Below, one piece after another: positions 2,592-34,958 of a DNA stretch of 44,830 nucleotides. A program made the position numbers and the translations under genes. The DNA is taken from contig JAQVGX010000002.1 of NCBI GenBank assembly GCA_028696515.1, positions 1-44,830 on the forward strand, written 5' to 3'. How positions within the stretch are numbered: position 1 is the first letter of the stretch; every line of letters starts with the position of its first letter. The notes beneath the pieces were generated by a model that was not told the origin of the DNA, ran no database searches, and was given only the letters and a program-made list of their open reading frames with translations. This DNA comes from Candidatus Dojkabacteria bacterium (GTDB lineage: Bacteria > Patescibacteriota > Dojkabacteria > JAHIVN01).

Positions 2592-3023
2592 TCAATGGCA
2601 ATTCTTTATGTTTTTTCTAATCAACTTAACAAATTCACAGTTTCTGGCAAGTTTTAAGTTTAAACATAATCCATCATTAAGATCAATGCTAATGCTTCTT
2701 TTGTCAGGTTTGACTGATTTTATAGATGACATGGGAATTTTGTGATACAAGTTAGAATTTTTTCCCAAGATTCTAAAAATGCCTCTTAGCTGAATAATCA
2801 ATTCTTTATCGTATAGTTGCACCAAGAGAACACTTCCAAATCCACCTATTCTAGTTAACAAACTTTTCATAGAATGCCCTGATGCATATTTCTCTTCAAA
2901 CAGAAGAATAGAATCATTATCAGGTTTCAATCTAGGAGTTAACAACAATTTTAGCATCAATAATATGAGAAAAATGAGAACTGCTAGGAAGAGATACTCA
3001 TCTATAAGCTTTAAGATTGTCAT
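2592..3023 (-). CDS. Hypothetical single-pass membrane protein
   Basis: 143-aa ORF with an N-terminal TM helix (YLFLAVLIFLILLMLKLLL), 53 nt downstream of the T4CP-like gene on the same strand. I recognise no family. Confidence 0.45.
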   Translation of the reverse strand: MTILKLIDEYLFLAVLIFLILLMLKLLLTPRLKPDNDSILLFEEKYASGHSMKSLLTRIGGFGSVLLVQLYDKELIIQLRGIFRILGKNSNLYHKIPMSSIKSVKPDKRSISIDLNDGLCLNLKLARNCEFVKLIRKNIKNCH

Positions 3024-3076
3024 TGAGAGTTACTGTAAAGTTACGGCGTGTTCTTCTCTTCAGTTAGAAAGTATAA

Positions 3077-5545
3077 TTATCTCATCTTGGGTCCGGCAGG
3101 GTTAAAAGCAGGAGGGGGAGGGAATCCACCTCCAAAGCCGCTCATTCCCGGTGTCTTCGCATTATATTCCTCACCTAGCTCTGCTCTCTGAGCTATTTCG
3201 GTTTCTACTATACCGACGTCTCTTCCATATTTCAGCCTTGAAAGCTCCTTTACCGTCTGTGCAACTTCAAAATCAGCCTTTGGAAGTCCAAATGGCGCAT
3301 TCTTTAGATGAGTGTATAATGAGAAAGGTGGAGGATATTCTCCATCAACCAGCAACTTCACATACGCATTTACAGCTTCTAAATTTATAAGATCATTCTG
3401 ATCAAATATTGGAGAAAATTCGTTCTGAAGATATTGAGAATCATTTACACCCACCTTAAAGCTTATAATTGTACCAACGTTACCGAAAACAGCATCTCTA
3501 ATTCTCTCATCTATCTGGGAAATATACTGATTACCAACAATCAGATTCAGCCTGTACTTTCTTGCCTCCGACAAGATCTGTGAAAAGTCATCTGTTGCGA
3601 AGTTCTGGAACTCATCAACATATAGATAGAAATCACGTCTTTGTTCTTCCGGCATATCCGCCCTGCTCATAGCGGCAGACAGAATTTTAGGAACAAGCAA
3701 AAGACCTAGAAACTGAGAGTTCTCCTCCCCAACAATACCTTTGGAAAGATTGACTATCAAAATCTTGCCCTCATCCATTATCTTACGAACATTGAAGCTG
3801 GATTCACTTTGACCTATGATATTTCGCATAAGTTTGTTAGTTACAAAACGATCAAATTTCGATACTATATATCCCAGAACCTCACTTTTATGGAAATCGC
3901 TTGTTTGAGCGATCTCATCAGTCCAGTACCTCTTTACAATATCATCCTTAACCATTGGCAGTTTTCTCTTAACAAATTGAGGATCAGTTAAGATTCTCAT
4001 CACTTCTATCAAGGTATTACCTTTCTCTGACATAGTTGTCAACATAGCATTTCTAACTGCTCTTTCAAATCTTGGACCTACTATACCCTGCCTATTCGGA
4101 TCGAACATTTTATACATAAGCCCGATAAATGAGTTCACTATTCTGTGCTTATCCTGTTCATCAAAGAAGTCGGTTATGTTAAATCCGATAGGCCTTTCAG
4201 TGTCGCCTGGGTTAAAGTAGATAACATCCTCTGAACGCTCCGGGGGAATTCTTTCTATCAACCACTCGGCAGGATCGCCATGAGGATCCAGAAAGGCTAT
4301 TCCCTTGCCGTTCATAATATCCTGAAGCGCCATACTCTGAAGCAAGTATGATTTTCCCATACCAGTTTTCCCAACAACATACATATGCTTTCTTCTGTCA
4401 TCTTCTTTTATGCACACATCACGTGAAATTCCTCTGAAAATAGACTGACCCAACCACAAGCCTTTCGTAGGGACCTCTTGAGAGGCCGGGGCTCGTTTTG
4501 AGAGCAACCAGTGTATATGCGGAGTCTGGATATTTTTATTAGGGAAGTGATAAACTGTTGCCAATTCTTCAGTATTTAGTATGTTTTCTCCCTTGGGTAT
4601 CCTGTATATAAAGTTTCTAACAAACTGCTTACCTTTCCCCTTACCGGCACTTTTTTTGACAAGAGAGTTACCATGCTGACTTTTAAGAGGTTCAAGTGCA
4701 GCAACAACATTCATCACATGCCTATTTGCAGAATCCTGACTTCTGCCGACAGCTACAATTCTAATATCCGTGAAAAAACCTACCTTGGAACATTTTTTCT
4801 CAACTGCACCTACAATATCTTCAGGAACTGGAGATTTATTTTCCCCATCAGAAGACTGTTTTTTAAGCCCATTTACAAAATTCTTACCTGTTGTCCTCCA
4901 TTTATTCCCTGCTGGAGATATGATTACCTGTATGGCTATTCCCTCTCCTTCTATCATTTTACTAACCGAGTTTGTAATAGAAGAAATCAGATCTACTGAT
5001 AGTTCCTCATATGTTCGGAGTGGTTTGTATTTTTCCGAGTCTTGGGTCAAGGTTGCGTGTGCCACCTTACCAGTCTCCTCGAATATATTGTATTCTTCAC
5101 TATCCCTGATATCAGCTGTTGGATAAGAGGAATGAATCTGCTTTTCGAGCATAGCCCGGAGATCTTCTGGAACACAAACATAGAAACGGATTGTTTCTGG
5201 GAATGCAACCACTTCAAAGCTGATAAAATCTGACACATTGAAATATTTCTTCAGCCCCTTACCTCCTTTTGACAGCCCATACAAAGAGGCAAATAACTGA
5301 TCCATGGCATTGATCTCTACCTCATTGTTATGCGGAACTCTAATTTCAAGCAAAACCATTTTCACGGATCGTTTTTCATATGCACGGTCACGCATTTTTT
5401 TCAAGAATTTGATGGCGAACCAAGCACCAATGGCAGATGAGACCACAATCAATGCGGATACGAGAAATAAAAGCAAAAGACCCGTACTGCCCTCCCCAGC
5501 TGAGGAGGAACCGTTTACACTTTGAGCATATACTTCTTGAATCAT
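3077..5545 (-). CDS. VirD4/TraG/TraD-type (type IV coupling protein-like) ATPase with an unassigned ~340-aa N-terminal domain
   Basis: 822 aa with an N-terminal TM helix (LLLLFLVSALIVVSSAIGAWFAIKFL). Walker A is HMYVVGKTGMGKSY at about residue 390, followed by IAFLDPHGD. Walker B and the TraG-D_C-like block read FYLYVDEFQNFATDDFSQILSEARKYRLNLIVGNQYISQI..FGNVGTIISFKVG. The C-tail is Gly/Pro-rich. Confidence 0.75.
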   Translation of the reverse strand: MIQEVYAQSVNGSSSAGEGSTGLLLLFLVSALIVVSSAIGAWFAIKFLKKMRDRAYEKRSVKMVLLEIRVPHNNEVEINAMDQLFASLYGLSKGGKGLKKYFNVSDFISFEVVAFPETIRFYVCVPEDLRAMLEKQIHSSYPTADIRDSEEYNIFEETGKVAHATLTQDSEKYKPLRTYEELSVDLISSITNSVSKMIEGEGIAIQVIISPAGNKWRTTGKNFVNGLKKQSSDGENKSPVPEDIVGAVEKKCSKVGFFTDIRIVAVGRSQDSANRHVMNVVAALEPLKSQHGNSLVKKSAGKGKGKQFVRNFIYRIPKGENILNTEELATVYHFPNKNIQTPHIHWLLSKRAPASQEVPTKGLWLGQSIFRGISRDVCIKEDDRRKHMYVVGKTGMGKSYLLQSMALQDIMNGKGIAFLDPHGDPAEWLIERIPPERSEDVIYFNPGDTERPIGFNITDFFDEQDKHRIVNSFIGLMYKMFDPNRQGIVGPRFERAVRNAMLTTMSEKGNTLIEVMRILTDPQFVKRKLPMVKDDIVKRYWTDEIAQTSDFHKSEVLGYIVSKFDRFVTNKLMRNIIGQSESSFNVRKIMDEGKILIVNLSKGIVGEENSQFLGLLLVPKILSAAMSRADMPEEQRRDFYLYVDEFQNFATDDFSQILSEARKYRLNLIVGNQYISQIDERIRDAVFGNVGTIISFKVGVNDSQYLQNEFSPIFDQNDLINLEAVNAYVKLLVDGEYPPPFSLYTHLKNAPFGLPKADFEVAQTVKELSRLKYGRDVGIVETEIAQRAELGEEYNAKTPGMSGFGGGFPPPPAFNPAGPKMR

Positions 5546-5588
5546 TTATCGATAACTCAAAAAAACGAATTTTCGTCTTTCAAAATAG

Positions 5589-6143
5589 TTAGTCTCCTGG
5601 CTGTACTCCAGTGGGACTTCCCATACGAAGTAATCTCCCAACAAGAACCAATAACCATGTCTTTGCCAAGGTTACATCACCAATAGCTGCCGCACTTGGG
5701 TATTTCTTCCCCATGTCTGCAACTTGATCAGATACCTTATAACCATATACCTTAAGAGGATTTTCAAATTTGGTTAAATTGGGAATTACCTTCGGGGCAT
5801 CTATCTTTCCAGCCTCCTGAGGTCTCATTTGTTCCTGTGCAACTTCCTGGGATTCGGCAGTATTTTCCACCTCCCCTACTTTATCAGGCTTGCTGACGAC
5901 TTCTGTTCCTGCTTCGATTTTGGCTGGCATTTCTGGCGAAGGAGAAGGACTAACTCCTGCAGGATTTAGTCCTCCACCATCTTGCACCGCCTGATTGACC
6001 TGGAATGATGATACTGATCCTCCTGGTGAAACAGGCTCCAATGGTACAGACCCCTGTGCAGAATATGGTTGCGCTAAATACGGTTGTGTAGCACCCCCAT
6101 TGTCACCATTTCCTGTTTGATTGTTAGCTACATTTGAATCCAT
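5589..6143 (-). CDS. Hypothetical protein, low-complexity P/G/S/Q-rich N-half with a short conserved-looking C-terminal segment
   Basis: 184-aa ORF starting at ATG, locally GC-rich, immediately upstream of and co-directional with the T4CP-like gene (43-nt gap). The C-terminal part is PKVIPNLTKFENPLKVYGYKVSDQVADMGKKYPSAAAIGDVTLAKTWLLVLVGRLL. No family recognised. Confidence 0.45.
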   Translation of the reverse strand: MDSNVANNQTGNGDNGGATQPYLAQPYSAQGSVPLEPVSPGGSVSSFQVNQAVQDGGGLNPAGVSPSPSPEMPAKIEAGTEVVSKPDKVGEVENTAESQEVAQEQMRPQEAGKIDAPKVIPNLTKFENPLKVYGYKVSDQVADMGKKYPSAAAIGDVTLAKTWLLVLVGRLLRMGSPTGVQPGD

Positions 6144-6207
6144 AGTATGAGTAGTTAGGCTGCAATTCTAACATGGTAAACTCTATATAAGCAACAAAGG
6201 TTCCCAA

Positions 6208-6684
6208 CTAGAAACTTACCCGTCCTGAGAGCTCAGTCTCCAACTGTCTCTTGAGATCTTTCTCTTTTAACTTAGATCTTTTGTCAATTTTTCTCCGCCC
6301 TTTCCCTGTACCAATTCTGACCTTTATCATTTTACCCGCAGGATATATTTCCAACGGAATTATTGACATATTCTTTGCATCCTGAGCTATCAACAACTCC
6401 TTTAACTCCTTTTTATTCATGAGTAACTTTCTTTCTCGTCGAGGATTATATTCTTTTACAAAAGCATGGCCATATAAAGGAATGTACATATTTATCAGCC
6501 AAGCCTCGAAATTCTTTATCCGTATAAAACTATCTTTTAAATTGGCGCTGCCCTGACGGATAGATTTCACCTCGTACCCCTTTAGCAGAATACCTGCTGT
6601 ATACTTTTTACCAATCTCGTAATCAAAAAAAGCTTTTTTATTTCGTGCATATGTCTGTTTACTCGTATTGTCCGGCTTTTTCAT
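6208..6684 (-). CDS. smpB: SsrA-binding protein SmpB
   Basis: ARNKKAFFDYEI...GILLKGYEVKSIRQGSANLKDSFIRI...EAWLINMYIPLY...YNPRRERKLLMNKKEL is the canonical SmpB signature, with a basic C-tail. The gene ends in TAG. Confidence 0.92.
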   Translation of the reverse strand: MKKPDNTSKQTYARNKKAFFDYEIGKKYTAGILLKGYEVKSIRQGSANLKDSFIRIKNFEAWLINMYIPLYGHAFVKEYNPRRERKLLMNKKELKELLIAQDAKNMSIIPLEIYPAGKMIKVRIGTGKGRRKIDKRSKLKEKDLKRQLETELSGRVSF

Positions 6685-8914
6685 CTACTTTAGCAAGGTC
6701 TATCTTATAAATATTTCCGTCATCCAAAACAAAGAGCCTTCTATTTGTACTGTCGACAACTATATCTTGAATATTCTCAAAACCTTTTACTCCTCTAAAA
6801 ACTATTTGAGCAATGAATTTCCCCTGAGTTGGAGTAAGTGTGGCACCTTTGCTTAGAACCACAACTCTCTTATTGCCCGGGTCAGCTACAAAAACAAGGT
6901 TTTCATCAAGCTCGATACAACTTGGATTCTGTATCTCCCTGTCTAATCCCACTAATGTATAGGAATCTACTTTATCAACAGAGTATCGGAATATTCCCTG
7001 GCTGGGTGTCGAAAAATAGATATTGCCATCAATTTCCATATCATTAGCATCAGCAAGTTTCGAACTCGACCAACGTAGTACAGGAAAAGAATAGCCCGAA
7101 GGATACTTTGATATTTTCTGAACATCTTGTGCCTGGTTTCTTAATAGATAAATGTATTCATTGCCATCCTTATCACTATAAGTATCCATCTCGCTTACAT
7201 CCCCAACACTTGTTGATGATAAACCTGCAATACTTTCTGCTGTCCGAGACATAATATCAATTTTTACAATACCAAGATCACTATCATAAACCAGCAAATC
7301 ATTCTCCCTGTTAGGGGCAATCCATTTAGGAGTAATAAGAATTTCATCACCGATAAAGGTGGTCACATCCCCGCCGTCTACTCCGACTGAATACACAGCA
7401 GAATTGTCCGGATCGGTCACATAGAGAGTTTCGTTGACCAAGGTAATATCACTTGTTATTGCGCCCTCAACATAGCCCGATACTGATGTTATCAAGGCAG
7501 ACTCATCAACCGGTATAGCCCTTGTAACATCATCAAGTATTCCTATTCCTTCATCTTTCTTTACATTAATTTCATCGGTAAGTACACCATACTCCAGAGC
7601 CGTATCTAGCTTATAAAGCGCATCATCTATGACAACAACTGCCTCAGAAATATTACCTGCTTGCCCGATTGTCCTTCCATTCTCAAACTGTTCGTCTACT
7701 TCAGCTAGAATTGCAGCTACGTTTTCCTTCTGTTCCTTTGTTTCTGATCCTTTCTTTATCGCCCTTATACTAAAAAATAGAACTAAAACTCCAAGAAAGA
7801 TCAATATGACAATTCCCCTAACCGCAGGCTTCGGTCCTGCACCCCGTATAAAAATCCCCTTTCTCCCCATACCCATCAGGCCTTCCCAGACATTCTTCCT
7901 GAGAAACTGGAAAATTTTAACAGCATATTCCCTTATCTTTGACCAGATTACTTGGTATGTTTTTTTGTCTTTTAATTTCTCCTTCAGTTTTTCACCGATT
8001 TCCTTGATTTTGCCTTGAGAACCTGTTGTGCTTTTTTGATTATGATCAATTGATTTTTGGATGTCTTTTGGATTTTTTTCACCAGAACTAATCATGTCAT
8101 CTGGAGTGACGTTTGCTTTTTCCTCTTTTTCGCTCTTATCCGGAACTATCTTCTCGGAAGTAAAATCAGAAAGACCCTGCTCATCCGGCTCCTCCATCTC
8201 TTCTCGACTCTCTATTTTCCGGGAACCTTCTTCCTTTTGCAGATTCAATACCTCCTCGTCTTTCTGTAATTTCTCTCCTAAACGTATAGTTAATACTCCC
8301 CAGAAAGGATTATCTGCTAGTTTTTCGATATCATCCATCGAACCATTTTTTGCTACCAGTTTCAGATCCGACTCCGAAAGACTAGATAACGCATCCGGAG
8401 ATATCAAGCTGAACTGATCATCCCACTCATATTTACCGCTGCCTGTTTTGATCAAGTTCCTCCCTGACAAGTCTTTCAATCCTTCTGTCAGATTTACAAG
8501 TGTTCGATCACGCATCAGCATTATCCCCCCCTCCCCCAGAACAGCCATATAAACAAAGCCCCCTTTTATTACTAAGGTTTCTACACTTAAATCTATACCC
8601 TCAGAGGCTGCTATATTTTCTCTCTGAAGTAGAAATTCAAGCTTACGGGCAACTAATAGAATGGCCTTTGACAATCTTTCAACAGGATTTTCAATATTGA
8701 GAGAATAATATTCCTCTTGTAAAGTGTCACAAAGAAGTCCGCCTGCTACTTCACTGTCAAATTCTTCTGGAGCTTTGATAGTAAATAGTGCAAAAAGTCT
8801 ACCAAATTCACTTACACCCGCACTTGATTCCGGCTTTACAGACACACCTGACCACCCACCCTTTTCAGGCCTACCTACAAGAAAGATTGACTCAATATCT
8901 CGATTTCCTTCCAT
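6659..8914 (-). CDS. Large membrane protein: N-terminal globular domain, K/E-rich disordered linker, one TM helix, C-terminal NHL-like beta-propeller repeats
   Basis: 751 aa with a TM helix at VRGIVILIFLGVLVLFFSI. The C-terminal half carries repeated blade-like motifs (LYVTDPDNSAVYSV, LLVYDSDLGIVKID, VFVADPGNKRVVVL, LFVLDDGNIYKI). The 3' end overlaps the smpB start by 26 nt. Confidence 0.6.
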   Translation of the reverse strand: MEGNRDIESIFLVGRPEKGGWSGVSVKPESSAGVSEFGRLFALFTIKAPEEFDSEVAGGLLCDTLQEEYYSLNIENPVERLSKAILLVARKLEFLLQRENIAASEGIDLSVETLVIKGGFVYMAVLGEGGIMLMRDRTLVNLTEGLKDLSGRNLIKTGSGKYEWDDQFSLISPDALSSLSESDLKLVAKNGSMDDIEKLADNPFWGVLTIRLGEKLQKDEEVLNLQKEEGSRKIESREEMEEPDEQGLSDFTSEKIVPDKSEKEEKANVTPDDMISSGEKNPKDIQKSIDHNQKSTTGSQGKIKEIGEKLKEKLKDKKTYQVIWSKIREYAVKIFQFLRKNVWEGLMGMGRKGIFIRGAGPKPAVRGIVILIFLGVLVLFFSIRAIKKGSETKEQKENVAAILAEVDEQFENGRTIGQAGNISEAVVVIDDALYKLDTALEYGVLTDEINVKKDEGIGILDDVTRAIPVDESALITSVSGYVEGAITSDITLVNETLYVTDPDNSAVYSVGVDGGDVTTFIGDEILITPKWIAPNRENDLLVYDSDLGIVKIDIMSRTAESIAGLSSTSVGDVSEMDTYSDKDGNEYIYLLRNQAQDVQKISKYPSGYSFPVLRWSSSKLADANDMEIDGNIYFSTPSQGIFRYSVDKVDSYTLVGLDREIQNPSCIELDENLVFVADPGNKRVVVLSKGATLTPTQGKFIAQIVFRGVKGFENIQDIVVDSTNRRLFVLDDGNIYKIDLAKVDEKAGQYE

Positions 8915-9090
8915 AATTATTAATTCAATTAACCCCTTAACAATAAAATGTTGTTATTCGTAATATTTTCCTTCTGATTTTCTCAACGAAACATTAAACT
9001 TAAAAGCACTGTTGGCTTTCATTACGCTAAAACTAGGCCAGTTCCATATGATATAAGGAAAAATATGTATACGCCTGATACTACATATCT

Positions 9091-9303
9091 TCACTTTACT
9101 ATCACAACTGCCATCAGTACAAGAAGAACAAGGAATATGTGAACAAGACTGAGGCAGTTTAAACATCCCTTCATCTTAGTTTTGATTGCTTTGTTCATCA
9201 GAAAAACTTGCCGTGCAATCAAAACCGACAAAAGGAAATATATAAATAGCAACACTAAAAATAGTGTTTTTGTTATCAATACGATCAAATTCTCACTCTC
9301 CAT
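9091..9303 (-). CDS. Small two-TM membrane protein (hypothetical)
   Basis: 70-aa ORF with two hydrophobic helices separated by the basic loop NKAIKTKMKG, 16 nt downstream of the preceding gene. Short, so coding status is uncertain. Confidence 0.35.
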   Translation of the reverse strand: MESENLIVLITKTLFLVLLFIYFLLSVLIARQVFLMNKAIKTKMKGCLNCLSLVHIFLVLLVLMAVVIVK

Positions 9304-9319
9304 ATAGACTAATGCAAAG

Positions 9320-9934
9320 CTAAACTGGATGCTTGACCATGAGATTTCTTAAATCCATGATTTTATCCCTCACCCATGAAGGTTTCGGTACGGATAAAAA
9401 ATCAAATTCTCTCCTTTCACCGGCTGTCTGAATATAGACATCCCCGTAGTTGAAAAACATTGGTAAAAAACCAATACTTTCCTGAGTGGCATCAACAATG
9501 TTGTCAAGACTGGCCTCGCTTATTTTATGATATGCAAAGGCGCTGAAATCAAAATCAAGTACCCTTTCACTGGTGATTACATATAAATTGAAATACCAAT
9601 CAAGAAACTTCATAAAACTTGATGTGAAGACCAGAAGATACCAGAGCATGATAGCCACAACTACATAACTATCCCTGAAAAATGGAATCGTTTCAAAGTC
9701 GATTTGCATAAGGCTGAGCACGTACAAAATAATCGGCGGGATAATAGAAAAAAATACTCCGGTTATAATCCAGCTAAGATTGGTAGCGATATGCCCCCTC
9801 AGCATAATGAAAACTCTTTCGTTAGGATTCTGAGTTTCAAACTCCATCCTTTCAGGCATGATGATAACAGAACTGATAGTCCCGTCACGTCTCTCTGGTA
9901 GTATCTCATTGAGTCTTTCTTGAGTATGAGTCAT
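9320..9934 (-). CDS. Membrane protein with a bacterial PH (bPH_2/YdbT-like) domain
   Basis: Two or three TM helices, then YVITSERVLDFDFSAF..HKISEASLDNIVDATQESIGFL..FNYGDVYIQTAGERREFDFLSVPKPSWVRDKI, the typical membrane-flanked bPH pattern. Confidence 0.6.
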   Translation of the reverse strand: MTHTQERLNEILPERRDGTISSVIIMPERMEFETQNPNERVFIMLRGHIATNLSWIITGVFFSIIPPIILYVLSLMQIDFETIPFFRDSYVVVAIMLWYLLVFTSSFMKFLDWYFNLYVITSERVLDFDFSAFAYHKISEASLDNIVDATQESIGFLPMFFNYGDVYIQTAGERREFDFLSVPKPSWVRDKIMDLRNLMVKHPV

Positions 9935-9950
9935 AATTCATCACTAATAA

Positions 9951-11720
9951 TTATTCGGCCTTTTTGAAGTAGAATGTTAAACTAAATACCGGATCCACTT
10001 CACCTGAAGGTTTTTTGTTACCAACCCAAAAATTAAAAATTATCTTAAAAAATTCCCCATTTATATCTGATGTCCCTTTACTCCCAACAATTCTCACCTT
10101 TGATGCCCTACCCGAAACATCTCGAACAAACTGTATATCCTTAAGAGTTCCAGTCGTACCCAGTAAATTTTTCACATCACTTGAACTTGGGTAGGTGTAC
10201 CCTGCCTTGCTATACCATTCTAACATTGATTGCAGTTCTTTTAAAGAATAACTGTTTGTTCTCCACATCCAGTCCGTATAAGGACCTTTGACTGCAAAGC
10301 TCGAATCATTAACTCCTTGCAGCCAGCTAAAGCCACTTCCGCAGTTACCCGCAAAATCCCAACACCACACTGGATTTCTATGTGTAGCTGTACCCCAGCC
10401 GTTATTATTATCTGAGGAATAATAAGCTTTTATGATGCTTCCTCCTGACTTCAAAACCTTCCCCTTTGTTTCATCAGCAGCCCATTTTTTTGCCGTACCT
10501 CCCTTGTAAACTTGACAACTCGCAGAAGTACAAATCGGGCCCCCATAAGCTAGCGCATAAGAACGAGCTACAATTACCTGGGCTTCAATAGTATTTTCAG
10601 GCCAACAGTCCCATATAGAATTCGGATCGTCCAACCTATACTTATCCGGCCTGGTATTTACCTGAGACTGATTTCCACAAGCCTTATCCGGGATTTCGCC
10701 CAGGCCAGAGACATAAGTTTCAATATTCATAGTTCCATATCCTATGACATCAATATTTCCCGATGCTGTTCCTATAACAGTACCCGGATAGTAAAACTTT
10801 GCAATTTGTGTGCCGCTCATACCGCTTTTTCCTCCTCCATAGGCTCCATATTGGGAAAATCCTAGGCCATGGCCTTGATACAGAGCTCGGCCTCTCCCAT
10901 AAAAATAGTACTCCCCTTTTACTAATGGTTTTGTCCCCCCATTTACATCCCCGATAAGAACAGCCTCTTCTTCCATCATAGCTCGTAAATCAGCATTTAA
11001 TCCCTCAATATCCTGCTGCACGGCTCCCATTTGAGCCCGGATGTTTGACTGTAAACTTGCATTGTAAGAGGCAAGCGAGTTGTAATAAGATACTTCATCG
11101 GTAAGTTCTTGCTTCCTTGTAGCGAGTTTCTTATTTTCATCGCTTAGAGATCCGACCTTCTTTTCAAACTCTAGTTTCTTTTTCTTCAGAGATTCTGCTT
11201 CAATGGCCATCTGGTTTACACCGTCAATGTCAGCATCTAGAAGTGTTTCTCGATATTTATAATCTTTCCAGAAGCCATCGACCTGACCATTCGAAAGAAA
11301 AACATCAACCAGCCCTCGGCGATCATTAATATACACATTGACAAGATTCTCATTCATTTCTCCTTGCTTCTTTTCGATATCAAGCTCCAGAAATTCGAGA
11401 CTTTTTTTGTACTTATCAAGTTTGACCTTGTTTAATTCAAGTTCAGCTTCAACTTTTTTCAACTCTGTTTCAATATTCTCAAGTTGGGATGAAGATGTCC
11501 CCATTTGGGATTCGAAGTACGCAACAAGCTCTTCTGCCTTTGTCAATTCTGATTCTAAATCGTCAAGTTCCTTCTCCTTCTGATCTATTTCCTTTTCAAT
11601 TTCATCCTGAGTTTTTGAGTATACGTAGACAGGAGAACTTAATGCATTTGACAGAAGAAGAAACGCAGTTAAGAAGATAAATGGAAATTTAAATGTTTTT
11701 GACAACTTATAATCTAGCAA
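9951..11720 (-). CDS. Secreted coiled-coil protein fused to a SpoIID/LytB-type domain (cell-wall remodelling)
   Basis: TTG start and a signal/TM segment (FPFIFLTAFLLLSNALS). About 230 aa of heptad-rich coiled coil follow (EKELDDLESELTKAEE..ELELNKVKLDKYKKSLEFLELDIEKKQ). SpoIID-like motifs come next: YVSGLGEIP...WPENTIEAQVIVARSYALAYGG..CTSASCQVYKGG...YYSSDNNNGWG. Confidence 0.7.
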   Translation of the reverse strand: MLDYKLSKTFKFPFIFLTAFLLLSNALSSPVYVYSKTQDEIEKEIDQKEKELDDLESELTKAEELVAYFESQMGTSSSQLENIETELKKVEAELELNKVKLDKYKKSLEFLELDIEKKQGEMNENLVNVYINDRRGLVDVFLSNGQVDGFWKDYKYRETLLDADIDGVNQMAIEAESLKKKKLEFEKKVGSLSDENKKLATRKQELTDEVSYYNSLASYNASLQSNIRAQMGAVQQDIEGLNADLRAMMEEEAVLIGDVNGGTKPLVKGEYYFYGRGRALYQGHGLGFSQYGAYGGGKSGMSGTQIAKFYYPGTVIGTASGNIDVIGYGTMNIETYVSGLGEIPDKACGNQSQVNTRPDKYRLDDPNSIWDCWPENTIEAQVIVARSYALAYGGPICTSASCQVYKGGTAKKWAADETKGKVLKSGGSIIKAYYSSDNNNGWGTATHRNPVWCWDFAGNCGSGFSWLQGVNDSSFAVKGPYTDWMWRTNSYSLKELQSMLEWYSKAGYTYPSSSDVKNLLGTTGTLKDIQFVRDVSGRASKVRIVGSKGTSDINGEFFKIIFNFWVGNKKPSGEVDPVFSLTFYFKKAE

Positions 11721-11813
11721 GACGCGAATAGTACAAAGTATAGATAATTATGATCAATTATCTAACATTTGGAAAAAAATCTCAATCAGATAAGTAAATT
11801 TAGGATAGAGACA

Positions 11814-12266
11814 CTACACAGTTCCAGTACAAACATCTGGGAAAAAGAACCTAAATATTGCCATGTTATCGAATTGATCGAAACCAGTAGTGAAACAGCT
11901 CCCTGGGTCTTGGAGTGCCAACAAAATAATCATTACCCGTACAAATATGTATCCACCAAAAACAAGTACAAAAGCTAGTGCAATATTTCCTCCCCGTTTT
12001 TTGAGGCTCGATAGCTTTTGTTCGTCTCCAAACGCCAGCATCCACTGAGCACCGATATAAATTATAGTGAAAATGAAATATGGAATTGATAAAGCCCAGA
12101 GCGCAAGCAAGGCATCAATAAATATTACCTCTGCTTCCTGTAAACGGTAAGGTTCATCTTTAATAGTTCCAGAGGAAGCACTCAAGCTACTTACTTTGGA
12201 TAGTAAAACTATCGGGCCAAGAAGCAGTCCCCTTAGTAAATTCTTTACTTTTACTTTCATTTTCAT
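11814..12266 (-). CDS. VirB2/TrbC-like two-helix pilin-module protein, paralog P6
   Basis: The ORF track starts at a TTG at 12323. The ATG at 12266 gives a cleaner signal peptide (MKMKVKVKNLLRGLLLGPIVLLSKVSSLSASS). The C-terminal module is ...IFTIIYIGAQWMLAFGDEQKLSSLKKRGGNIALAFVLVFGGYIFV, then a 2-Cys tail. Confidence 0.6.
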   Translation of the reverse strand: MKMKVKVKNLLRGLLLGPIVLLSKVSSLSASSGTIKDEPYRLQEAEVIFIDALLALWALSIPYFIFTIIYIGAQWMLAFGDEQKLSSLKKRGGNIALAFVLVFGGYIFVRVMIILLALQDPGSCFTTGFDQFDNMAIFRFFFPDVCTGTV

Positions 12267-12418
12267 ATTCGTAAAACAATAAAATTGTTGAACTAATTTA
12301 ACAATAATTATACCAGAAAACAAGGTTCTAATATAATCGAGTTTACATTTTAGAAGACAATGGAAATTTCAGTTAGACTTTATTATAATCAAAAAAATAA
12401 ACCAATAAAAAGTATACT

Positions 12419-13918
12419 ATGAAAACATTTAAGAAAGTTTATATATTTTTAGATAAGATACCCCTCATTACAACATCTTTAGTAATCCTGATTTTCACTA
12501 TGCTACTGTTTTTGCCGACAGACCCGGATCTATTCTGGCATCTAAAGTATGGCGAACTGACTTTGGATCAAGGACCAATATCACATGACCCTTTTTCATA
12601 TACCTTTTCTGAATTCAGATTTTACGACTATGAATGGCTTGCTCACATTCTAACTATTTTATTATACAGATTTGGTGGATATGTATTACTTTCGATCTTC
12701 TTTGCAGTTATTGTTTTACTCGCTTTCACTCTTTCAGCCAATATCAGCCTTCCACGCAAAGCCCCCCGGAATCTCAGAACTTTGGCTGTGTTTGCAGGAC
12801 TATTTCTAACGATACCGATGACGGGAATACGCTTGCAAATGCTGTCGCTGCTAGGAGTGGTATCAGTATACTTTATATACAACAGATACCTCACTGCTAA
12901 ATCCAAGTTGATTTATCTTATTCCTGTAATATTTGTGCTCTGGGCAAACGTCCATCCAGGATTTCTATCAGGGCTGGCGCTTATCAGTCTACTTACTTTC
13001 TCAGAGTTCATAAAGTTTCTGCTGAGAAGTTTCAACCTTTCCGGAAAATCAGATTCCATTTATGATGATGATTATCCAAGTCTCAAAACACTATTTCTGA
13101 TAACTGTACTTTCTTTTATCTCAACCCTCATCACACCTTTTGGTCACCACATACTCTTCCAATCTTTGAGTTTTTCGGTTGAGCCATATACCGGCAATAT
13201 CATAAACGAGTGGCTTTCTCCTGATTTTAAAGTCACAAGTGGATTCTTCTTTTATTCATTTTCCGGGATAATATTCCTATCATTTTATTTGAGAAAGAAG
13301 ATCAATCTTAACGAAATATTGGTAATCATTTTCTTTGCTATCATGACCATGCAAGGGATAAGAAATCTGCCCTTGTTAGTAGCAGTCGCTCTTCCTTCTA
13401 TCCTGCAAACCCCAGGCTACCAGAAAATCAAGGGTTATTTCAATGATGCCAATCTCCTCCTTCTGGCATCAAAACTATTTCTATTCATTTTAGCTCTTGG
13501 AATATCCATTTTTAACTTCCGTACATATTATAAACTTATAAACGATATCGATCTTGTCTATGAAGCCGCCGATTACCCAAGGGAAGCTGTTGTGTACATG
13601 AAAGAAAACCCAGAAGAGGGCAATATCTTCAACACATTTGGCTGGGGAGGATATCTTATCTGGGAATACCCAGAAAAGAAGCTTTTTATAGACGGCAGAA
13701 TGCCTTCTTGGAGAATGGGAAAAAGATCGATTCTCAAAGAACAGAACGATATCAAAGATCTCAAAATACCAGACTGGAGGGAGAGGCTTTATAGCTATAA
13801 TGTCAAAATTATCTTACTAAGACCTACAGATCCATTGGTCAATGCACTCAGATACGATCCTGATTGGGAAGTTGTACTTGATGAACCTAATTCTGTCCTC
13901 ATTTATAAAAAGATATAG
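12419..13918 (+). CDS. Polytopic membrane protein, GT-C-fold glycosyltransferase-like (tentative)
   Basis: 499 aa with at least 10 hydrophobic helices and an acidic first-loop motif PTDPDLFWHLKYGE, reminiscent of the DxD/DPxF loop-1 motifs of STT3/ArnT-type GT-C enzymes. The soluble C-terminal domain has a WGGYLIW..DGR motif. It is the only plus-strand gene inside the pilin-like locus. Confidence 0.4.
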   Translation: MKTFKKVYIFLDKIPLITTSLVILIFTMLLFLPTDPDLFWHLKYGELTLDQGPISHDPFSYTFSEFRFYDYEWLAHILTILLYRFGGYVLLSIFFAVIVLLAFTLSANISLPRKAPRNLRTLAVFAGLFLTIPMTGIRLQMLSLLGVVSVYFIYNRYLTAKSKLIYLIPVIFVLWANVHPGFLSGLALISLLTFSEFIKFLLRSFNLSGKSDSIYDDDYPSLKTLFLITVLSFISTLITPFGHHILFQSLSFSVEPYTGNIINEWLSPDFKVTSGFFFYSFSGIIFLSFYLRKKINLNEILVIIFFAIMTMQGIRNLPLLVAVALPSILQTPGYQKIKGYFNDANLLLLASKLFLFILALGISIFNFRTYYKLINDIDLVYEAADYPREAVVYMKENPEEGNIFNTFGWGGYLIWEYPEKKLFIDGRMPSWRMGKRSILKEQNDIKDLKIPDWRERLYSYNVKIILLRPTDPLVNALRYDPDWEVVLDEPNSVLIYKKI

Positions 13919-13984
13919 CCTACTTTTACTTCAGATTTCCTATCTTCTTCCAAGTTGAAGATTGATAAATGAGCTCTGCTAAAT

Positions 13985-14015
13985 AAAAAAGCCTCAGATA
14001 AACTGAAGCTTTTTC
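13985..14015. terminator. Bidirectional intrinsic terminator between convergent genes
   Basis: A-run, then stem AGCCTCAG (13990..13997), loop ATAAA, stem CTGAAGCT (14003..14010, 7 of 8 pairs), then a T-run. It lies between the stop of 12419..13918 (+) and the stop of 14038..14526 (-). Confidence 0.55.
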
Positions 14016-14037
14016 TATAATCAATTTTCCTCTTACC

Positions 14038-14526
14038 TCAATCTCCCGGATCAACATTGATATTAGCCTCTGGAGCTTTTTCACCTCCAAGTATAAATAT
14101 TATTGCAAATATACCGATAATCGCAAGAATCATAGCAGCAAATCCCATAAGCACAGCTTTGATAGCTCCTTTTGATTCCTCAAGCTTCCCAGACTCTCCC
14201 TGGCTTGTAATGAACTTAATAGCGGCTAATGCTGAATATATGATTGCAGCCAGGAAGACAACAACAAAAACTACTGTCAAAGCAACCCTCACACGCCTAT
14301 TTACAAATTCATTTACATCATTTGCATTTAAACTGTCATCATTTCCTGTAATACTATCAATAATATTTTTGATAAAAGGCGGCAAAACCTCACTTCCACT
14401 GGCACCAGTATTATTAGCTGCTGCATAACTAGGCATCGCCATCCCAAAAAAGAGTGCCCCGCTAACACTCGATACTGTGAACACTTTGGAAGCAACATTC
14501 AATGATAGTTTTTTTAGCTTATTCAT
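14038..14526 (-). CDS. VirB2/TrbC-like pilin-module protein, paralog P1
   Basis: Signal peptide (..FFGMAMPSYAAA), a short ectodomain, then VALTVVFVVVFLAAIIYSALAAIKFITSQGESGKLEESKGAIKAVLMGFAAMILAIIGIFAIIFIL. Confidence 0.65.
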   Translation of the reverse strand: MNKLKKLSLNVASKVFTVSSVSGALFFGMAMPSYAAANNTGASGSEVLPPFIKNIIDSITGNDDSLNANDVNEFVNRRVRVALTVVFVVVFLAAIIYSALAAIKFITSQGESGKLEESKGAIKAVLMGFAAMILAIIGIFAIIFILGGEKAPEANINVDPGD

Positions 14527-14614
14527 AATGCAAAACCTTATAAATTAACTTTGAAATTATATCAAATATATGCCAGATTAGCAAAATAAAAACAAAATTG
14601 CAAGTAAATAATCG

Positions 14615-15199
14615 TCAATTACATACCCAGTCAGCAGGAGTGCATTCCCAATCACATCCTTCTGGAAGAGTGTCTTCATCTATATCACGCTTATGCTCAA
14701 ACAGAGTTTCACCATTACAGACAGCCAGATTTTGGGCCAGAGAAAAAACTGTACCTATCCCCAAGAAGAATGTCACAACGTTAACTAGTATAAACATAAT
14801 AATTGTCGCCGCAAAGCCAATCAATGCATTTTTAAACCACTTACTCGCACTTTGGAGTTTAGTATCACTGCCCTGGCTCCCAACCATCCTTATCGCTCCA
14901 ATAGCAATGGCAAATATAAGTACGATAAAAAGAATTACAAATAAGTTCGAAAGTATAACTGAAAGAATTACCCAAATCGAGGTGTCTCCCTCCCAATAGT
15001 TAAGAGGCTTGAGAATATTTAGCCTTATACTTCCACCGGGGCCAAATATTTCGTCAAACAAATCACCCTCCCCAGGAACCAGGACATCATCATTATTTGC
15101 AGATGCCAATACCCCACCTTCTTGCGAAAAGGGGAAAACAGATATGCCTATAAAGATAACTATAACAGTAACCAATAAACCTATTATAATCCTTTTCAT
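14615..15199 (-). CDS. VirB2/TrbC-like pilin-module protein, paralog P2, with a C-terminal 4-Cys extension
   Basis: Signal/TM segment, ectodomain, then ..LFIVLIFAIAIGAIRMVGSQGSDTKLQSASKWFKNALIGFAATIIMFILV. An extra helix follows, then the tail CNGETLFEHKRDIDEDTLPEGCDWECTPADWVCN. Confidence 0.6.
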   Translation of the reverse strand: MKRIIIGLLVTVIVIFIGISVFPFSQEGGVLASANNDDVLVPGEGDLFDEIFGPGGSIRLNILKPLNYWEGDTSIWVILSVILSNLFVILFIVLIFAIAIGAIRMVGSQGSDTKLQSASKWFKNALIGFAATIIMFILVNVVTFFLGIGTVFSLAQNLAVCNGETLFEHKRDIDEDTLPEGCDWECTPADWVCN

Positions 15200-15213
15200 G
15201 ATAAGAAAGCTAA

Positions 15214-15555
15214 TTAACTAAAAACCTCATCTATAAAACTAAAGTCTGTTATATCTACACCCAAAAGACCTGCTATAACAGCAAAGACCAATATAAACCC
15301 AAATGCTATAAGAACTGCAATTATTCCATCTTTCATGATCTTTTGAGCTTTCTGTAGCTTCTCTTCACTATCACCAGCCGTAATCCATGTATAACCACCA
15401 TAAAAAATTACAACAACTAATCCAACGGCAAGCAAGGAAATAGCAATTAACAAAGCAGTTTTTATGAGCCTCGGGAAGACCGAAGGATCGGTATCTCCGT
15501 GTGATCCTGTAACATTTTCATCTACCCCCAAGATTTCAGTCCATTTCTTAAACAT
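15214..15555 (-). CDS. VirB2/TrbC-like pilin-module protein, paralog P3 (minimal form)
   Basis: 113 aa: ..ALLIAISLLAVGLVVVIFYGGYTWITAGDSEEKLQKAQKIMKDGIIAVLIAFGFILVFAVIAGLLGVDITDFSFIDEVFS. Confidence 0.65.
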   Translation of the reverse strand: MFKKWTEILGVDENVTGSHGDTDPSVFPRLIKTALLIAISLLAVGLVVVIFYGGYTWITAGDSEEKLQKAQKIMKDGIIAVLIAFGFILVFAVIAGLLGVDITDFSFIDEVFS

Positions 15556-15594
15556 TAGTATCTATAGTAATATTTATTATTAAAGTGTCCCAAT

Positions 15595-16095
15595 TTACTC
15601 AACAAGTGCCGTATCAATATCAAGCAAACTGGCAAGTATTCTAACCAAGAGTGGTGCGAGTGCCATTATTGCGAAACCTACTGCGGCACCTATGGCTATT
15701 TTCATACTTTTCCCCTCTTTATCTGGATTTCCTGCTGCAGTCATGCGTACAAACCCAGCGTAAATGACTGTAAAAATGAAGCCAACAACTGACAAGGGCG
15801 TTGTAATACCGCTAGCCTTTGTGATAAGTTCCCCTAAACTAACGAGGGTTGTAGGAATAGGGATAGTAGTCGGTTTACCAGTTGATGAAGGATCCGCACA
15901 ACAACACCAAGTATTACCATCTGGGACTAATGGATCACAATATGCAGTACATACTTTCCCTCCATTTTCACACATATCTTTTGGCAGAAATTGACCGGAA
16001 CAGTCATTACAAGACATTGCTTCTACTTTCGCACTAGGGAGAGAGGTCATAAGCAAAAAGAATAGGGAAATGCATATAAAAATTCTTCTCAACAT
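15595..16095 (-). CDS. VirB2/TrbC-like pilin-module protein, paralog P4, with an N-terminal Cys-rich ectodomain
   Basis: Signal peptide (FICISLFFLLMTSLPSAKVEA), then 8 Cys in about 42 aa (SCNDCSGQFLPKDMCENGGKVCTAYCDPLVPDGNTWCCCADP), then a P/T linker. The module reads ..VVGFIFTVIYAGFVRMTAAGNPDKEGKSMKIAIGAAVGFAIMALAPLLV..LLDIDTALVE. Confidence 0.65.
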   Translation of the reverse strand: MLRRIFICISLFFLLMTSLPSAKVEAMSCNDCSGQFLPKDMCENGGKVCTAYCDPLVPDGNTWCCCADPSSTGKPTTIPIPTTLVSLGELITKASGITTPLSVVGFIFTVIYAGFVRMTAAGNPDKEGKSMKIAIGAAVGFAIMALAPLLVRILASLLDIDTALVE

Positions 16096-16112
16096 AATAA
16101 GGCTTTTAAAAG

Positions 16113-17306
16113 TTATTCAAATATTTTGCCAATACCCAGTATATCAATACCTATAAAATTTAAAAGGATAGGGAGCATTATACCAAAGGCGATGGCAATG
16201 ACAGCACTAGTAACTATCCCTCTCGCCTCCTTCATCTTTTCCGGGTCATCTGTGTTTATCATATAGCCTGCCTGTATAAACCTGACAACCGAGAGACCCG
16301 TAACAATACCTACAAAAACCCTCATTACAGCAACCACAATACCGTTATCACTTGGTGTAATACAGCCGACTTCAGTCCAAAGATTTCCTGTATAAGTTTC
16401 CGAACAATCATCCTCCCCATCATCTCCCGCTGGACAACTACAATCGGGATTCCCGCAAACACAATTGCAGCAATCAGTCAAATTCGAACCTGTCTCATCA
16501 CCGCAGATTTCTTTACAGGATGGATCTTTTGGGGTCTGCGAAACATCTGGATTGCCTACATTCGAACAGTCTGTTCCGACTGGAGGACCATTGATATGAG
16601 ATGTCCACTTCGGATTAGCATGAGCTGGTCCTCCCAATAACATTTCAACTTCAACTGAGTGAGGCCCAGGATCCAGATTTATCGGAATAGTTTCTTGTCC
16701 CGTCCCGAAACCATACCCTGTCCAATATGGATCTCCATTCCCATCTACAGTTAGTGTGTATACAACCTTTTTAAAGACAGTTCCCGACCACCTAAACTCA
16801 ATATTTCCTAGACACCCATTCTTAAGAGTAATTTTACAATCCTCATCAACACTACTCACTGACAAGATATGTGAATAACCGTTTACGTTAGGCCCAAAGG
16901 GAGTACCATTTGTAAGCCAAGTATAACAGTCAGAGTTACCGGTTCTTTTAACAAAGATTTTTCTATCCTCAAAAGCAGGCATTCCCCTCCAGTAACTCGA
17001 CAGATTGTAAGTAACAACATCTGTTTGCGCGGGATCTTCATCAATAAATTTTACAGCTTTTGACCATGCGGAAATTTCACCAAAATACACAAATCCTTCA
17101 ACATTTACTTTATCCCCCCCAGTCCCGATTGTGTTATTCTTTATAGTAAGTATATCGGTTGCTGTATCGTAATCACAATCCCCATCCCTCACTATCGCAG
17201 CCATCGTTTTGTTCAGAGTTCCTAACCCAAATAAAAACATAGCTCCGACAAACACGGATCCCGCTGCAAAAAGTTTGATTTTCCTATACTTATTGTTCTC
17301 TTTCAT
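16113..17306 (-). CDS. VirB2/TrbC-like pilin-module protein, paralog P5, with a large N-terminal ectodomain and a Cys-rich linker
   Basis: 397 aa with a signal/TM segment (LFAAGSVFVGAMFLFGLGTL) and a ~250-aa beta-rich region. Next come 11 Cys in about 70 aa (CSNVGNPDVSQTPKDPSCKEICGDETGSNLTDCCNCVCGNPDCSCPAGDDGEDDCSETYTGNLWTEVGC). The module reads ..VAVMRVFVGIVTGLSVVRFIQAGYMINTDDPEKMKEARGIVTSAVIAIAFGIMLPILLNFIGIDILGIGKIFE. Confidence 0.65.
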   Translation of the reverse strand: MKENNKYRKIKLFAAGSVFVGAMFLFGLGTLNKTMAAIVRDGDCDYDTATDILTIKNNTIGTGGDKVNVEGFVYFGEISAWSKAVKFIDEDPAQTDVVTYNLSSYWRGMPAFEDRKIFVKRTGNSDCYTWLTNGTPFGPNVNGYSHILSVSSVDEDCKITLKNGCLGNIEFRWSGTVFKKVVYTLTVDGNGDPYWTGYGFGTGQETIPINLDPGPHSVEVEMLLGGPAHANPKWTSHINGPPVGTDCSNVGNPDVSQTPKDPSCKEICGDETGSNLTDCCNCVCGNPDCSCPAGDDGEDDCSETYTGNLWTEVGCITPSDNGIVVAVMRVFVGIVTGLSVVRFIQAGYMINTDDPEKMKEARGIVTSAVIAIAFGIMLPILLNFIGIDILGIGKIFE

Positions 17307-17484: not shown

Positions 17485-17706
17485 TCAAGGCCTCTCTGAA
17501 ACACTTTTCAGGGGAATTACAAGCAATCCCTCCTGAACCTCTAAATATCCCTTCAGACTCTTCCAACAAATTTCCACACAGTAATCAAATCTTTGGATAG
17601 AAGCGTCACGTATAACATCTAAATCATCTTCCTTGCCCAATACTTCTTGAAAAGAAGTTAGGGCTTTTCTGAGCCGAACTAATTGTGCAGTTAGCTTCTC
17701 ATCCAT
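17485..17706 (-). pseudogene. Truncated HepT-like (HI0074/NTase substrate-binding family) toxin gene remnant
   Basis: 73-aa ORF ..RKALTSFQEVL...DVIRDASIQRFDYCVEICWKSLKGYLEVQEG matches the N-terminal half of the family (IqRFEf..E..WK.lK.yL). The expected RxxxH-containing C-half is missing. A frameshifted continuation (VFQRGLEG..) ends at the duplication boundary. Confidence 0.6.
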
Positions 17707-32707: not shown

Positions 32708-33235
32708 CTAGGTAGTGAAATAGTGTTCGATCATGTCAAAGGTCCGAACAAATTGTTTATCTAGTCCTGAAGTCTGCTCTAGGCTGACCAATGCTTTTTG
32801 CACAATGTCACCTTTATTTAAAGATAATACTCTTCTGACATTTTCATATGTCTGATCTTTAATTGCTAATCTTCCTACAACACTTTCTATTTCATGCAAA
32901 ATAGCCTGGTTTACATTGCATCTAAGAAGCAGGCTTACTGAGGCAGATCTTAGAAGATCATCCACTAAGCCAAACACCTGAACCTCAGGAAGTCTCTGAT
33001 ATGCTTTTGCAGATTCAGCTTGCCCCATCACCAGACTTTCTTCAACAGAGGCCACAACATATAAAATTACAATATTCTTAGGAATTTTAAGCGGCAACCC
33101 TTGGGCTTCACATACCCCTCTTACTCTTGTAAACAAAATTCCCTTATCTACTATACCTTCTTCTAGCACTGCCCTCAACCCCTCAAGTGTATTTAAGGCT
33201 TTAACATGCTCAGGTGATAATTGTACTGTCTCCAT
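32708..33235 (-). CDS. Hypothetical soluble protein (orphan)
   Basis: 175-aa ORF with an ATG start and L/E/V/R/Q-rich composition, unlike the K/I/N-rich host proteins. No TM helix and no motif recognised. Confidence 0.5.
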   Translation of the reverse strand: METVQLSPEHVKALNTLEGLRAVLEEGIVDKGILFTRVRGVCEAQGLPLKIPKNIVILYVVASVEESLVMGQAESAKAYQRLPEVQVFGLVDDLLRSASVSLLLRCNVNQAILHEIESVVGRLAIKDQTYENVRRVLSLNKGDIVQKALVSLEQTSGLDKQFVRTFDMIEHYFTT

Positions 33236-33314
33236 ATCATTTTTTGACGAAAATTATAATTTCACTCAATCATATAATACTAAGCAAGTATCCACTTTTC
33301 AAGTTTTCAAGCAC

Positions 33315-34127: not shown

Positions 34128-34190
34128 AAAAATCTATCTCTAAAATAAATTTCCTACTCGAATCAGATACTTTTGAATTTTATCGTATAC

Positions 34191-34219: not shown

Positions 34220-34221
34220 TA

Positions 34222-34515: not shown

Positions 34516-34516
34516 G

Positions 34517-34930: not shown

Positions 34931-34958
34931 AAAATTTTCATTCTTGGGAAGCGAATCT

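Follow-up and report, generated by a model that had tools for sequence, protein, structure and literature searches.

In the Patescibacteria, a survey detected VirB4 in 2,417 of 3,035 genomes, 441 pilin arrays of 2–11 genes with a mean identity of ~25%, and 5,713 homologs of type IV coupling proteins (T4CPs) in 2,918 genomes, only 148 of these homologs being near virB4 (Quinonero-Coronel et al. 2025, PMC12102498). Relaxases are rare in this group, and its type IV secretion system (T4SS) has probably been repurposed (PMC12102498). In Southlakia epibionticum, neither the T4SS nor its series of pilins is dispensable, and no coupling protein or relaxase was recognisable in the cluster (Wang et al. 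2023, PMC10633639). The Patescibacteria T4SS is portrayed in the same way in a 2025 review. That a T4SS may be repurposed, with pilin arrays and a detached coupling protein, is in general terms a published idea (PMC12102498, PMC10633639). Patescibacteria are host-dependent, and their unusual T4SS has proved essential in the single species examined genetically; the question of which genes make up the machine is therefore of consequence. Here we describe a 15-kb locus (positions 2592–17306) within a 44,830-nucleotide stretch of a Candidatus Dojkabacteria genome (contig JAQVGX010000002.1; the whole analysed stretch is hereafter the window), in which six VirB2-like pilins, a SpoIID-type wall cassette and a coupling-type ATPase are encoded side by side. 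An earlier sequence-only reading had proposed that these genes may form one non-canonical, T4SS-derived envelope system.

The 15-kb stretch is a genuine succession of envelope genes on a Dojkabacteria chromosome, and every open reading frame (ORF) named by the sequence-only reading is present and in its place. Nevertheless, we favour, with moderate confidence, three separable modules that are neighbours on a backbone of strong synteny over a single T4SS-derived apparatus. The modules are the pilin array, a four-gene wall cassette together with smpB, and a pair consisting of a small protein and the ATPase. Their clustering in the Dojkabacteria would then mostly reflect a conserved chromosomal backbone. 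Gene identities, folds and the pattern of synteny with its break-up across lineages were demonstrated in the analysis, and it is from these that we infer every functional step proposed below. The published picture is left unchanged; what is added is detail and candidates for experiments.

Gene order within the Dojkabacteria

We compared 64 loci of the ATPase family, taken from a scan of one genome per species and designated here by L numbers, using tblastn and ORF clustering supported by a pilin hidden Markov model (HMM) and tRNA scans. In the Dojkabacteria loci (ATPase identity ~47–89%), the order is pilins, sometimes sbcD-sbcC, SpoIID, a bacterial PH (bPH) domain protein, a small protein with two transmembrane helices, a 751-amino acid protein, smpB, a small protein and the ATPase, followed by a variable slot, tRNA-Ile(UAU), xerC, divIC, tRNA-Met, ftsH and polA. 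The conserved linkage in relatives expected of a single system is thus found within the class, but the adjoining backbone is equally conserved, and outside the class the parts separate. SpoIID and the 751-amino acid protein were present in 23 of 40 informative loci, as compared to 19 of 38 for xerC. Because conservation is just as high for the housekeeping genes and tRNAs on the flanks, the synteny is a property of the chromosomal backbone and not of these genes. In the window, tRNA-Ile(UAU), xerC, divIC and two tRNA-Met genes occupy positions 372–2307, and of the 11 Dojkabacteria loci checked (L003–L037), 10 preserve this order beside the ATPase; the tRNA scan did not find tRNA-Ile in L013.

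Housekeeping genes also lie inside the envelope block, smpB throughout and sbcDC in many of the relatives. The smpB gene of the window (6208–6684, minus strand; PF01668, E 4e-48), which serves trans-translation, overlaps the 3′ end of the 751-amino acid gene by 26 nucleotides and is embedded in the block. In addition, a membrane gene on the opposite strand here separates the five tandem pilins from the sixth pilin and the remaining genes. The locus does lie mostly on one strand, as had been pointed out, but the minus strand carries ~75% of the genes across the whole window; since the bias spans the window, it is uninformative about the 15-kb locus in particular. Operons could not be delimited from scans for promoters and terminators, whose counts were at or close to those expected from shuffling.

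Variation is confined to the short slot between the ATPase and tRNA-Ile, where the cargo genes differ from genome to genome. In the window it is occupied by a gene for a 143-amino acid protein with a single transmembrane helix (2592–3023, minus strand) and no family match in Pfam, NCBIfam or PADLOC. This gene was a singleton in the clustering of the 64 loci and was missing even in L005, the closest relative (89% identity of the ATPase). The small membrane protein had been counted as a part of the set; it is specific to this genome and falls outside any conserved module.

The tyrosine recombinase and tRNA genes beside a T4CP-like gene could point to an integrative conjugative or mobilisable element, with a canonical T4SS and relaxase just outside the window. 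However, the recombinase, the tRNAs and the whole block occupy one chromosomal position across the class, and the variation between genomes is limited to the short slot described above. The AT-rich window is uniform in GC content (0.34–0.42), its GC skew is negative throughout, there is no compositional island, and no relaxase, VirB4 or VirB6 domain was found among the proteins scanned in its 44.8 kb. On the grounds of class-wide synteny and uniform composition we rejected this identity, which we hold to be extremely improbable.

Separation of the modules in other lineages

Three Levybacteria loci (L067, L069 and L073), reached through homologs of the bPH protein, carry a LytR_C gene bordering a block of SpoIID, bPH, (DUF5657) and PP2C-like/LytR_C genes, with smpB in or near the block. 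Genes for penicillin-binding proteins are nearby in L067 and L073, and there is no pilin and no ATPase within 10 kb in any of the three. The smpB gene follows the cassette in the Dojkabacteria, L069 and L072, and is nearby in L067, L070 and L071. ATPases of 35–41% identity, from CPR2, Howlettbacteria and other lineages, are encoded in the order rmuC, pheS, pheT, L,D-transpeptidase, small acidic protein, ATPase, gyrB and gyrA, and these loci contain no pilin, SpoIID or bPH gene. In L031, the ATPase lies among an aminoacyl-tRNA synthetase gene, rpsT and uvrD. Clustering and the listed Pfam families revealed no T4SS core genes within 10 kb of the ATPase in the 64 loci, and 97 further large ATPase neighbours included no T4SS family among the 25 Pfam families listed.

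In the loci L070–L072, from an unclassified lineage, the cassette is divergent and stands back to back with the pilins, of which there are eight each in L071 and L072 and one seen in the shorter L070. These loci contain no ATPase. Array, cassette and ATPase pair are therefore separable.

In L071 (1–3737) and L072 (1–4474), the pilin array is followed by a gene for a secreted Cys-rich protein of 784–851 amino acids and then by one for a polytopic membrane protein with at least six transmembrane helices. Neither protein has a Pfam match, and the polytopic protein could be VirB6-like. An SLT-like motif considered in the 851-amino acid protein of L071 was unsupported, with nothing in Pfam and chance-level PDB sequence matches only.

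Under the proposal of a single non-canonical machine derived from a T4SS, whose task would be DNA uptake, attachment or the export of filaments or effectors, each of these genes has a part. Besides the pilins and the coupling ATPase, SpoIID would act as a VirB1-like wall opener, and the bPH, DUF5657 and propeller proteins would be envelope-spanning accessories. All of the parts are linked class-wide in the Dojkabacteria, and as recognisable VirB1 and VirB8 are missing in most Patescibacteria, substitutes for them are to be expected (PMC12102498). Several points also weigh against our division into modules. In L032, the ATPase has been relocated directly upstream of the SpoIID cassette, and therefore these two modules stayed together through a rearrangement. 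Array and cassette border on each other in three different ways, being co-directional here, separated by sbcDC in many Dojkabacteria, and divergent in L070–L072, where the secreted Cys-rich and polytopic membrane proteins lie beside the array. This recurrence hints that the pilin array and the cassette are linked beyond chance, as an impression of frequency to which no figure is attached. The genes of the loci, moreover, were called by a simple longest-ORF method and clustered by BLAST.

On the other hand, the Levybacteria have the cassette with neither pilins nor ATPase, other classes have the ATPase with neither pilins nor cassette, housekeeping genes interrupt a block whose adjoining backbone is equally syntenic, and a gene on the opposite strand separates the pilin operon from the rest. 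The 751-amino acid protein combines PP2C and NHL folds and not a T4SS fold, and in Southlakia a coupling-protein homolog is not essential, whereas the T4SS genes are (PMC12102498). Most of the gene calls and the class-wide linkage behind the idea of one T4SS-derived system have held, but that linkage is lost outside the class and is interrupted by housekeeping genes within it, so that a single machine appears rather unlikely to us. The separable modules that we favour provide three testable units: a four-gene SpoIID cassette recurring beside pilin arrays, a PP2C-like/propeller transmembrane protein with a lineage-swapped ectodomain, and a coupling-type ATPase, widespread among the Patescibacteria, with a small gene directly upstream.

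The VirB2-like pilin array

An external pilin HMM, trained solely on the pilins of other genomes with the family of the sixth pilin (pil6) excluded, recovered exactly six paralogs from the window (E 5e-28 to 8e-10) and no other gene there. These are the same five tandem pilin-module genes and sixth paralog that had been picked out from the sequence. All six are on the minus strand. Pilin 1 (16113–17306) is composed of a signal-like helix, a Cys-rich ectodomain of ~300 amino acids with 15 Cys, and a C-terminal VirB2-like two-helix module, with transmembrane helices at residues 10–28, 323–341 and 364–382 (PF18895, E 0.0011; external HMM, E 8e-10). Pilin 2 (15595–16095) has nine Cys in its N-terminal part (PF18895, E 5.3e-8, 33.3 bits vs a cut-off of 26.6; external HMM, E 2e-24), and its ectodomain, like that of pilin 1, is Cys-rich. 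Pilin 3 (15214–15555) is minimal, with 113 amino acids (PF18895, E 2e-4; external HMM, E 1e-22), and pilin 4 (14615–15199) bears a Cys-containing C-terminal extension (PF18895, E 0.0033; external HMM, E 5e-28). Pilin 5 (14038–14526) has a weak match to the Mbov_0395 pilin-like model of NCBIfam (E 0.0024; external HMM, E 7.5e-27). The sixth gene, pil6 (11814–12323; external HMM, E 7e-12), lies directly upstream of SpoIID, with a start that may be at 12323 or at 12266, and has orthologs at the equivalent position in L003–L005. The T4SS_pilin family (PF18895) thus matches four of the five tandem genes, above the Pfam cut-off for pilin 2 alone.

A hydropathy scan placed a C-terminal two-helix hydrophobic hairpin in each of the six pilins and an N-terminal signal-like helix in pilins 1, 2 and 4. 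In the alignment of the modules, the loop connecting the helices is short and charged and has a conserved G(D/N/E)xxK motif, an architecture of the VirB2/TrbC pilin type. The modules share a mean identity of 23%, as compared to 25% for the published arrays of 2–11 divergent PF18895 pilins. Judged by these sequence features, the six-gene array is of the pilin-array type already described in the Patescibacteria.

The Pfam scan covered ~30 window proteins. Among them, there was no VirB4 domain (no CagE_TrbE_VirB, PF19044 or AAA_10-type match above threshold) and no relaxase domain, and neither Pfam nor NCBIfam gave a VirB3, VirB6 or VirB8 match. The sole T4SS-type ATPase of the window matched T4CP models best. 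The absence of VirB4, VirB6, VirB8 and relaxase genes from the window, as remarked in the sequence-only reading, was therefore reproduced by domain scans. From this absence, that reading had concluded that the pilins and the coupling ATPase appear detached from a classical conjugation module. This is correct for the window, but VirB4 is listed as present in both of the Dojkabacteria genomes shown in Table S1 of the survey (PMC12102498), and for this reason a T4SS probably does go with the pilins at the level of the genome.

The locus resembles the described Patescibacteria T4SS (PMC12102498, PMC10633639) in having a T4CP homolog away from virB4, no relaxase and a chromosomal site. It differs from Southlakia, where the pilins lie inside the T4SS cluster, in that the window does not contain the virB4, virB3, virB6 and trsD core. 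We propose that the pilins would be inserted via the Sec pathway and then assembled by a VirB4-type T4SS encoded elsewhere in the genome, and that their ectodomains, which are variable and in part Cys-rich, would be presented to make contact with a host cell.

Directly upstream of the array lies a gene (17991–20546, minus strand) for a ClpB/ClpC-like double-AAA+ protein of 851 amino acids, with two predicted transmembrane helices in its first 100 residues, which would be unusual for Clp unfoldases. In L058, a ClpB-like gene adjoins the coupling-type ATPase.

The SpoIID wall cassette

The first gene of the cassette (9951–11720, minus strand) encodes a SpoIID/LytB-type peptidoglycan enzyme of 589 amino acids, in which a signal or transmembrane helix precedes a coiled coil of ~260 amino acids. 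The catalytic domain was identified by PF08486 (32.7 bits vs a cut-off of 23), while TIGR02669 (E 5.5e-22, 79 bits) remained just below its cut-off of 83.3, and a PDB sequence search gave no direct match. Its YVSGLGEIP, AQVIVARSYA and CQVYKG segments appear to resemble conserved motifs of the SpoIID family. The coiled-coil SpoIID/LytB protein seen in the initial reading is thus substantiated by both its domain match and its N-terminal coiled coil.

The second gene (9320–9934, minus strand) encodes a membrane protein of 204 amino acids with two transmembrane helices and a YdbS/YdbT-like bacterial PH domain. The assignment as a bPH-domain protein draws on its homologs, which carry PF03703 and are named YdbS-like; its own bPH_2 match is weak (E 0.0039) and below the cut-off. 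The third (9091–9303, minus strand) encodes the 70-amino acid protein with two transmembrane helices, as previously described, which is a DUF5657 protein (PF18901, E 8.6e-13). SpoIID is found at the equivalent position in the Dojkabacteria, the Levybacteria and L070–L072, with the bPH gene always after it, and PF18901 recurs at the equivalent position in L067, L070, L071 and L072.

Like the coiled-coil-regulated wall hydrolases PcsB and EnvC, the SpoIID protein has a long N-terminal coiled coil behind a membrane anchor. The cassette differs from other SpoIID/LytB enzymes in its setting, with no sporulation context and no FtsEX gene seen nearby, and in the fixed partners of SpoIID, which are the bPH protein, the DUF5657 protein and the PP2C-like sensor protein. 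The four genes, SpoIID, bPH, DUF5657 and PP2C-like/NHL, followed by smpB, would serve sensor-controlled local remodelling of the wall, and may provide openings in it for surface filaments as well.

As the SpoIID cassette is next to the pilin array in three arrangements, a VirB1-like helper role of SpoIID, as the sequence-only reading had suggested, is kept as a plausible hypothesis. A more far-reaching version would make the cassette an accessory dedicated to the VirB2-type pilus of the Patescibacteria, opening and spanning the wall in place of the VirB1 and VirB8 functions that most Patescibacteria lack; in the Dojkabacteria it would also be coupled to the PF26449 ATPase and its small partner. 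If so, the idea of one system would be essentially right for the Dojkabacteria, but we consider this version distinctly improbable. Pilins adjoining a SpoIID-bPH-DUF5657-PP2C/NHL cassette are not described in the available portions of the Patescibacteria T4SS papers (PMC12102498, PMC10633639). The searched portions of the PMC12102498 supplements gave no match to SpoIID, DUF5657, PF18901 or PF08486, and DUF5657 was not mentioned in the literature searched.

The PP2C-like/NHL-propeller protein

The fourth gene of the cassette (6659–8914, minus strand) encodes a bitopic membrane protein of 751 amino acids. Its AlphaFold2 (AF2) model (pLDDT 74.7) consists, in order, of a cytoplasmic PP2C-like domain, a disordered acidic linker, a transmembrane helix (residues 368–386), a helical stalk and a six-bladed NHL propeller. 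The PP2C fold was recognised by Foldseek through PstP, tPphA and STP (E ~1e-8, TMt 0.60–0.66), and the propeller matched the PknD ectodomain, the Brat NHL domain and Pizza6 (TMt 0.67–0.73). The protein is hence the NHL-propeller membrane protein that had been recognised from the sequence, and in addition it carries a PP2C-like cytoplasmic domain. Structure prediction had been suggested for 6659–8914 as a means of finding a hidden T4SS fold; Foldseek found no T4SS fold in the model, and the PP2C-like and NHL folds were found instead.

As read directly from the sequences, the metal-binding motif DGxGG is absent from the 751-amino acid protein and from three homologs in L067 and L071, and because of this absence the protein is probably a pseudophosphatase. 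A partner kinase was likewise not seen. Across lineages, the PP2C-like domain and the transmembrane helix are kept while the ectodomain is exchanged, being an NHL propeller in the Dojkabacteria and in L071 (as a C-terminal match) and LytR_C in the Levybacteria (L067, L069).

In Mycobacterium tuberculosis, the membrane PP2C PstP is similar in its cytoplasmic PP2C fold (TMt 0.60–0.66) and single transmembrane helix, and PknD in its extracellular six-bladed NHL sensor propeller (TMt 0.67). The PstP gene is located in a mycobacterial division and wall operon. However, the 751-amino acid protein differs from PstP and PknD in that it has no DGxGG motif, that no partner kinase was seen, and that its ectodomain is swapped for LytR_C in the Levybacteria.

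The coupling-type ATPase and its small neighbour

The ATPase (3077–5545, minus strand) is a membrane-anchored, VirD4/TrwB-like protein of the T4CP type with 822 amino acids, a ~340-amino acid N-terminal domain (PF26449) and a G/P-rich C-terminal tail. It scored above the Pfam cut-offs for TrwB_AAD_bind (PF10412), TraG-D_C (PF12696) and DUF87, matched TraD and VirD4-like models of NCBIfam, and found TrwB and DotL as its best PDB sequence matches. The Walker A (G392–K398) and Walker B (D644–E645) motifs are invariant in 14 homologs. With the AF2 model (pLDDT 78.8), Foldseek retrieved TrwB (TMt 0.57–0.65), Cagbeta and HerA, revealing a T4CP fold. These results agree with the VirD4/TraG-type coupling ATPase called at the outset. 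PADLOC gave generic HerA and mad8 P-loop matches only, and the contexts are housekeeping ones; a role of the ATPase in defence was accordingly discarded.

The best Foldseek E-values were obtained with full-length TrwK/VirB4 (1.6e-15), but at a TM-score of ~0.3 and a root-mean-square deviation of 17–18 Å, and the sequence profile of the ATPase finds T4CPs only. In the structure model, the PF26449 domain (residues ~60–340) may resemble the VirB4 N-terminal domain, and it may be because of this extra domain that full-length VirB4 chains top the E-values. The domain, assigned to PF26449 by precomputed annotation, belongs to a large family with 1,912 representative clusters at 50% identity; it sits N-terminally, and the full-length carrier proteins have ~800–1,100 amino acids.

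The ATPase shares with the T4CPs TrwB, TraD, VirD4, DotL and Cagbeta the Walker A and B motifs, the fold of the nucleotide-binding and all-alpha domains, and an N-terminal membrane anchor. It differs in having one predicted transmembrane helix, whereas classical T4CPs typically have two, and in its extra PF26449 domain, its housekeeping setting, and the lack of relaxase or T4SS genes nearby.

This housekeeping setting lends itself to another explanation, in which the ATPase is an FtsK-like DNA pump in a neighbourhood for division and chromosome handling, together with XerC, DivIC, a septal SpoIID with its PcsB-like coiled coil, and the PstP-like PP2C protein. The genes xerC and divIC lie just downstream across the Dojkabacteria, gyrB, gyrA and rmuC are neighbours of the ATPase gene in other classes, and the PP2C fold resembles PstP. 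T4CPs also fall within the FtsK/HerA superfamily, HerA being among both the fold and the PADLOC matches. However, the nearest sequence relatives of the ATPase are TraD, TrwB and DotL and not FtsK, no FtsK gamma domain was seen, and FtsK is mentioned in the accessible text of the Saccharibacterium TM7x transcriptome papers. As the adjacency may merely reflect the synteny of the backbone, we regard an FtsK-like pump as very unlikely and retain the ATPase as a T4CP-type member of a separable pair.

The other member of the pair is a small, mostly disordered P/G/Q-rich protein (5589–6143, minus strand), a candidate ATPase partner whose N-terminal part is of low complexity. The low-complexity P/G-rich protein of the sequence-only reading has thereby gained a conserved C-terminal motif of ~45 amino acids, ..(F/Y)GY..P.....KG(D/N)P..(K/R)TW...LLDRLL(K/R), in an alignment of 31 sequences. 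In nearly all Dojkabacteria loci, its gene immediately precedes that of the ATPase, and in other classes this position is occupied by a different small acidic protein. A comparison of the two families by hhalign showed no homology (probability 0.3%), and hence the partner is conserved by position but not demonstrably by descent. We propose that the small protein and the ATPase would constitute a hexameric motor that recruits or translocates a substrate, with the small protein as adaptor or regulator. The small adjacent partner recalls the pair of Cagbeta and CagZ (8DOL is among the fold matches), which is offered as an analogy and not as a test.

Other features of the window

The gene inserted within the pilin array (12419–13918, plus strand) encodes a polytopic membrane protein with eight predicted transmembrane helices and is not a core part of the array. 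It occupies the same spot in L003 and L005 and is absent there in L004. The protein has no match in Pfam or NCBIfam, and in L072 its homolog adjoins a GT87 gene. The earlier label "GT-C-like" is therefore without HMM support, its basis being the eight predicted helices and the neighbour of the L072 homolog.

Elsewhere in the window, four consecutive genes (32708–36623, minus strand) encode soluble proteins of 175, 270, 155 and 238 amino acids without any Pfam match, and a protein of 279 amino acids (40269–41108) has a sub-threshold Sigma70_r4_2 match only. A 73-amino acid ORF (17485–17706, minus strand) matches the first half only of the NTase_sub_bind (HEPN-like) profile and resembles a truncated remnant, perhaps one left by a toxin-antitoxin pair.

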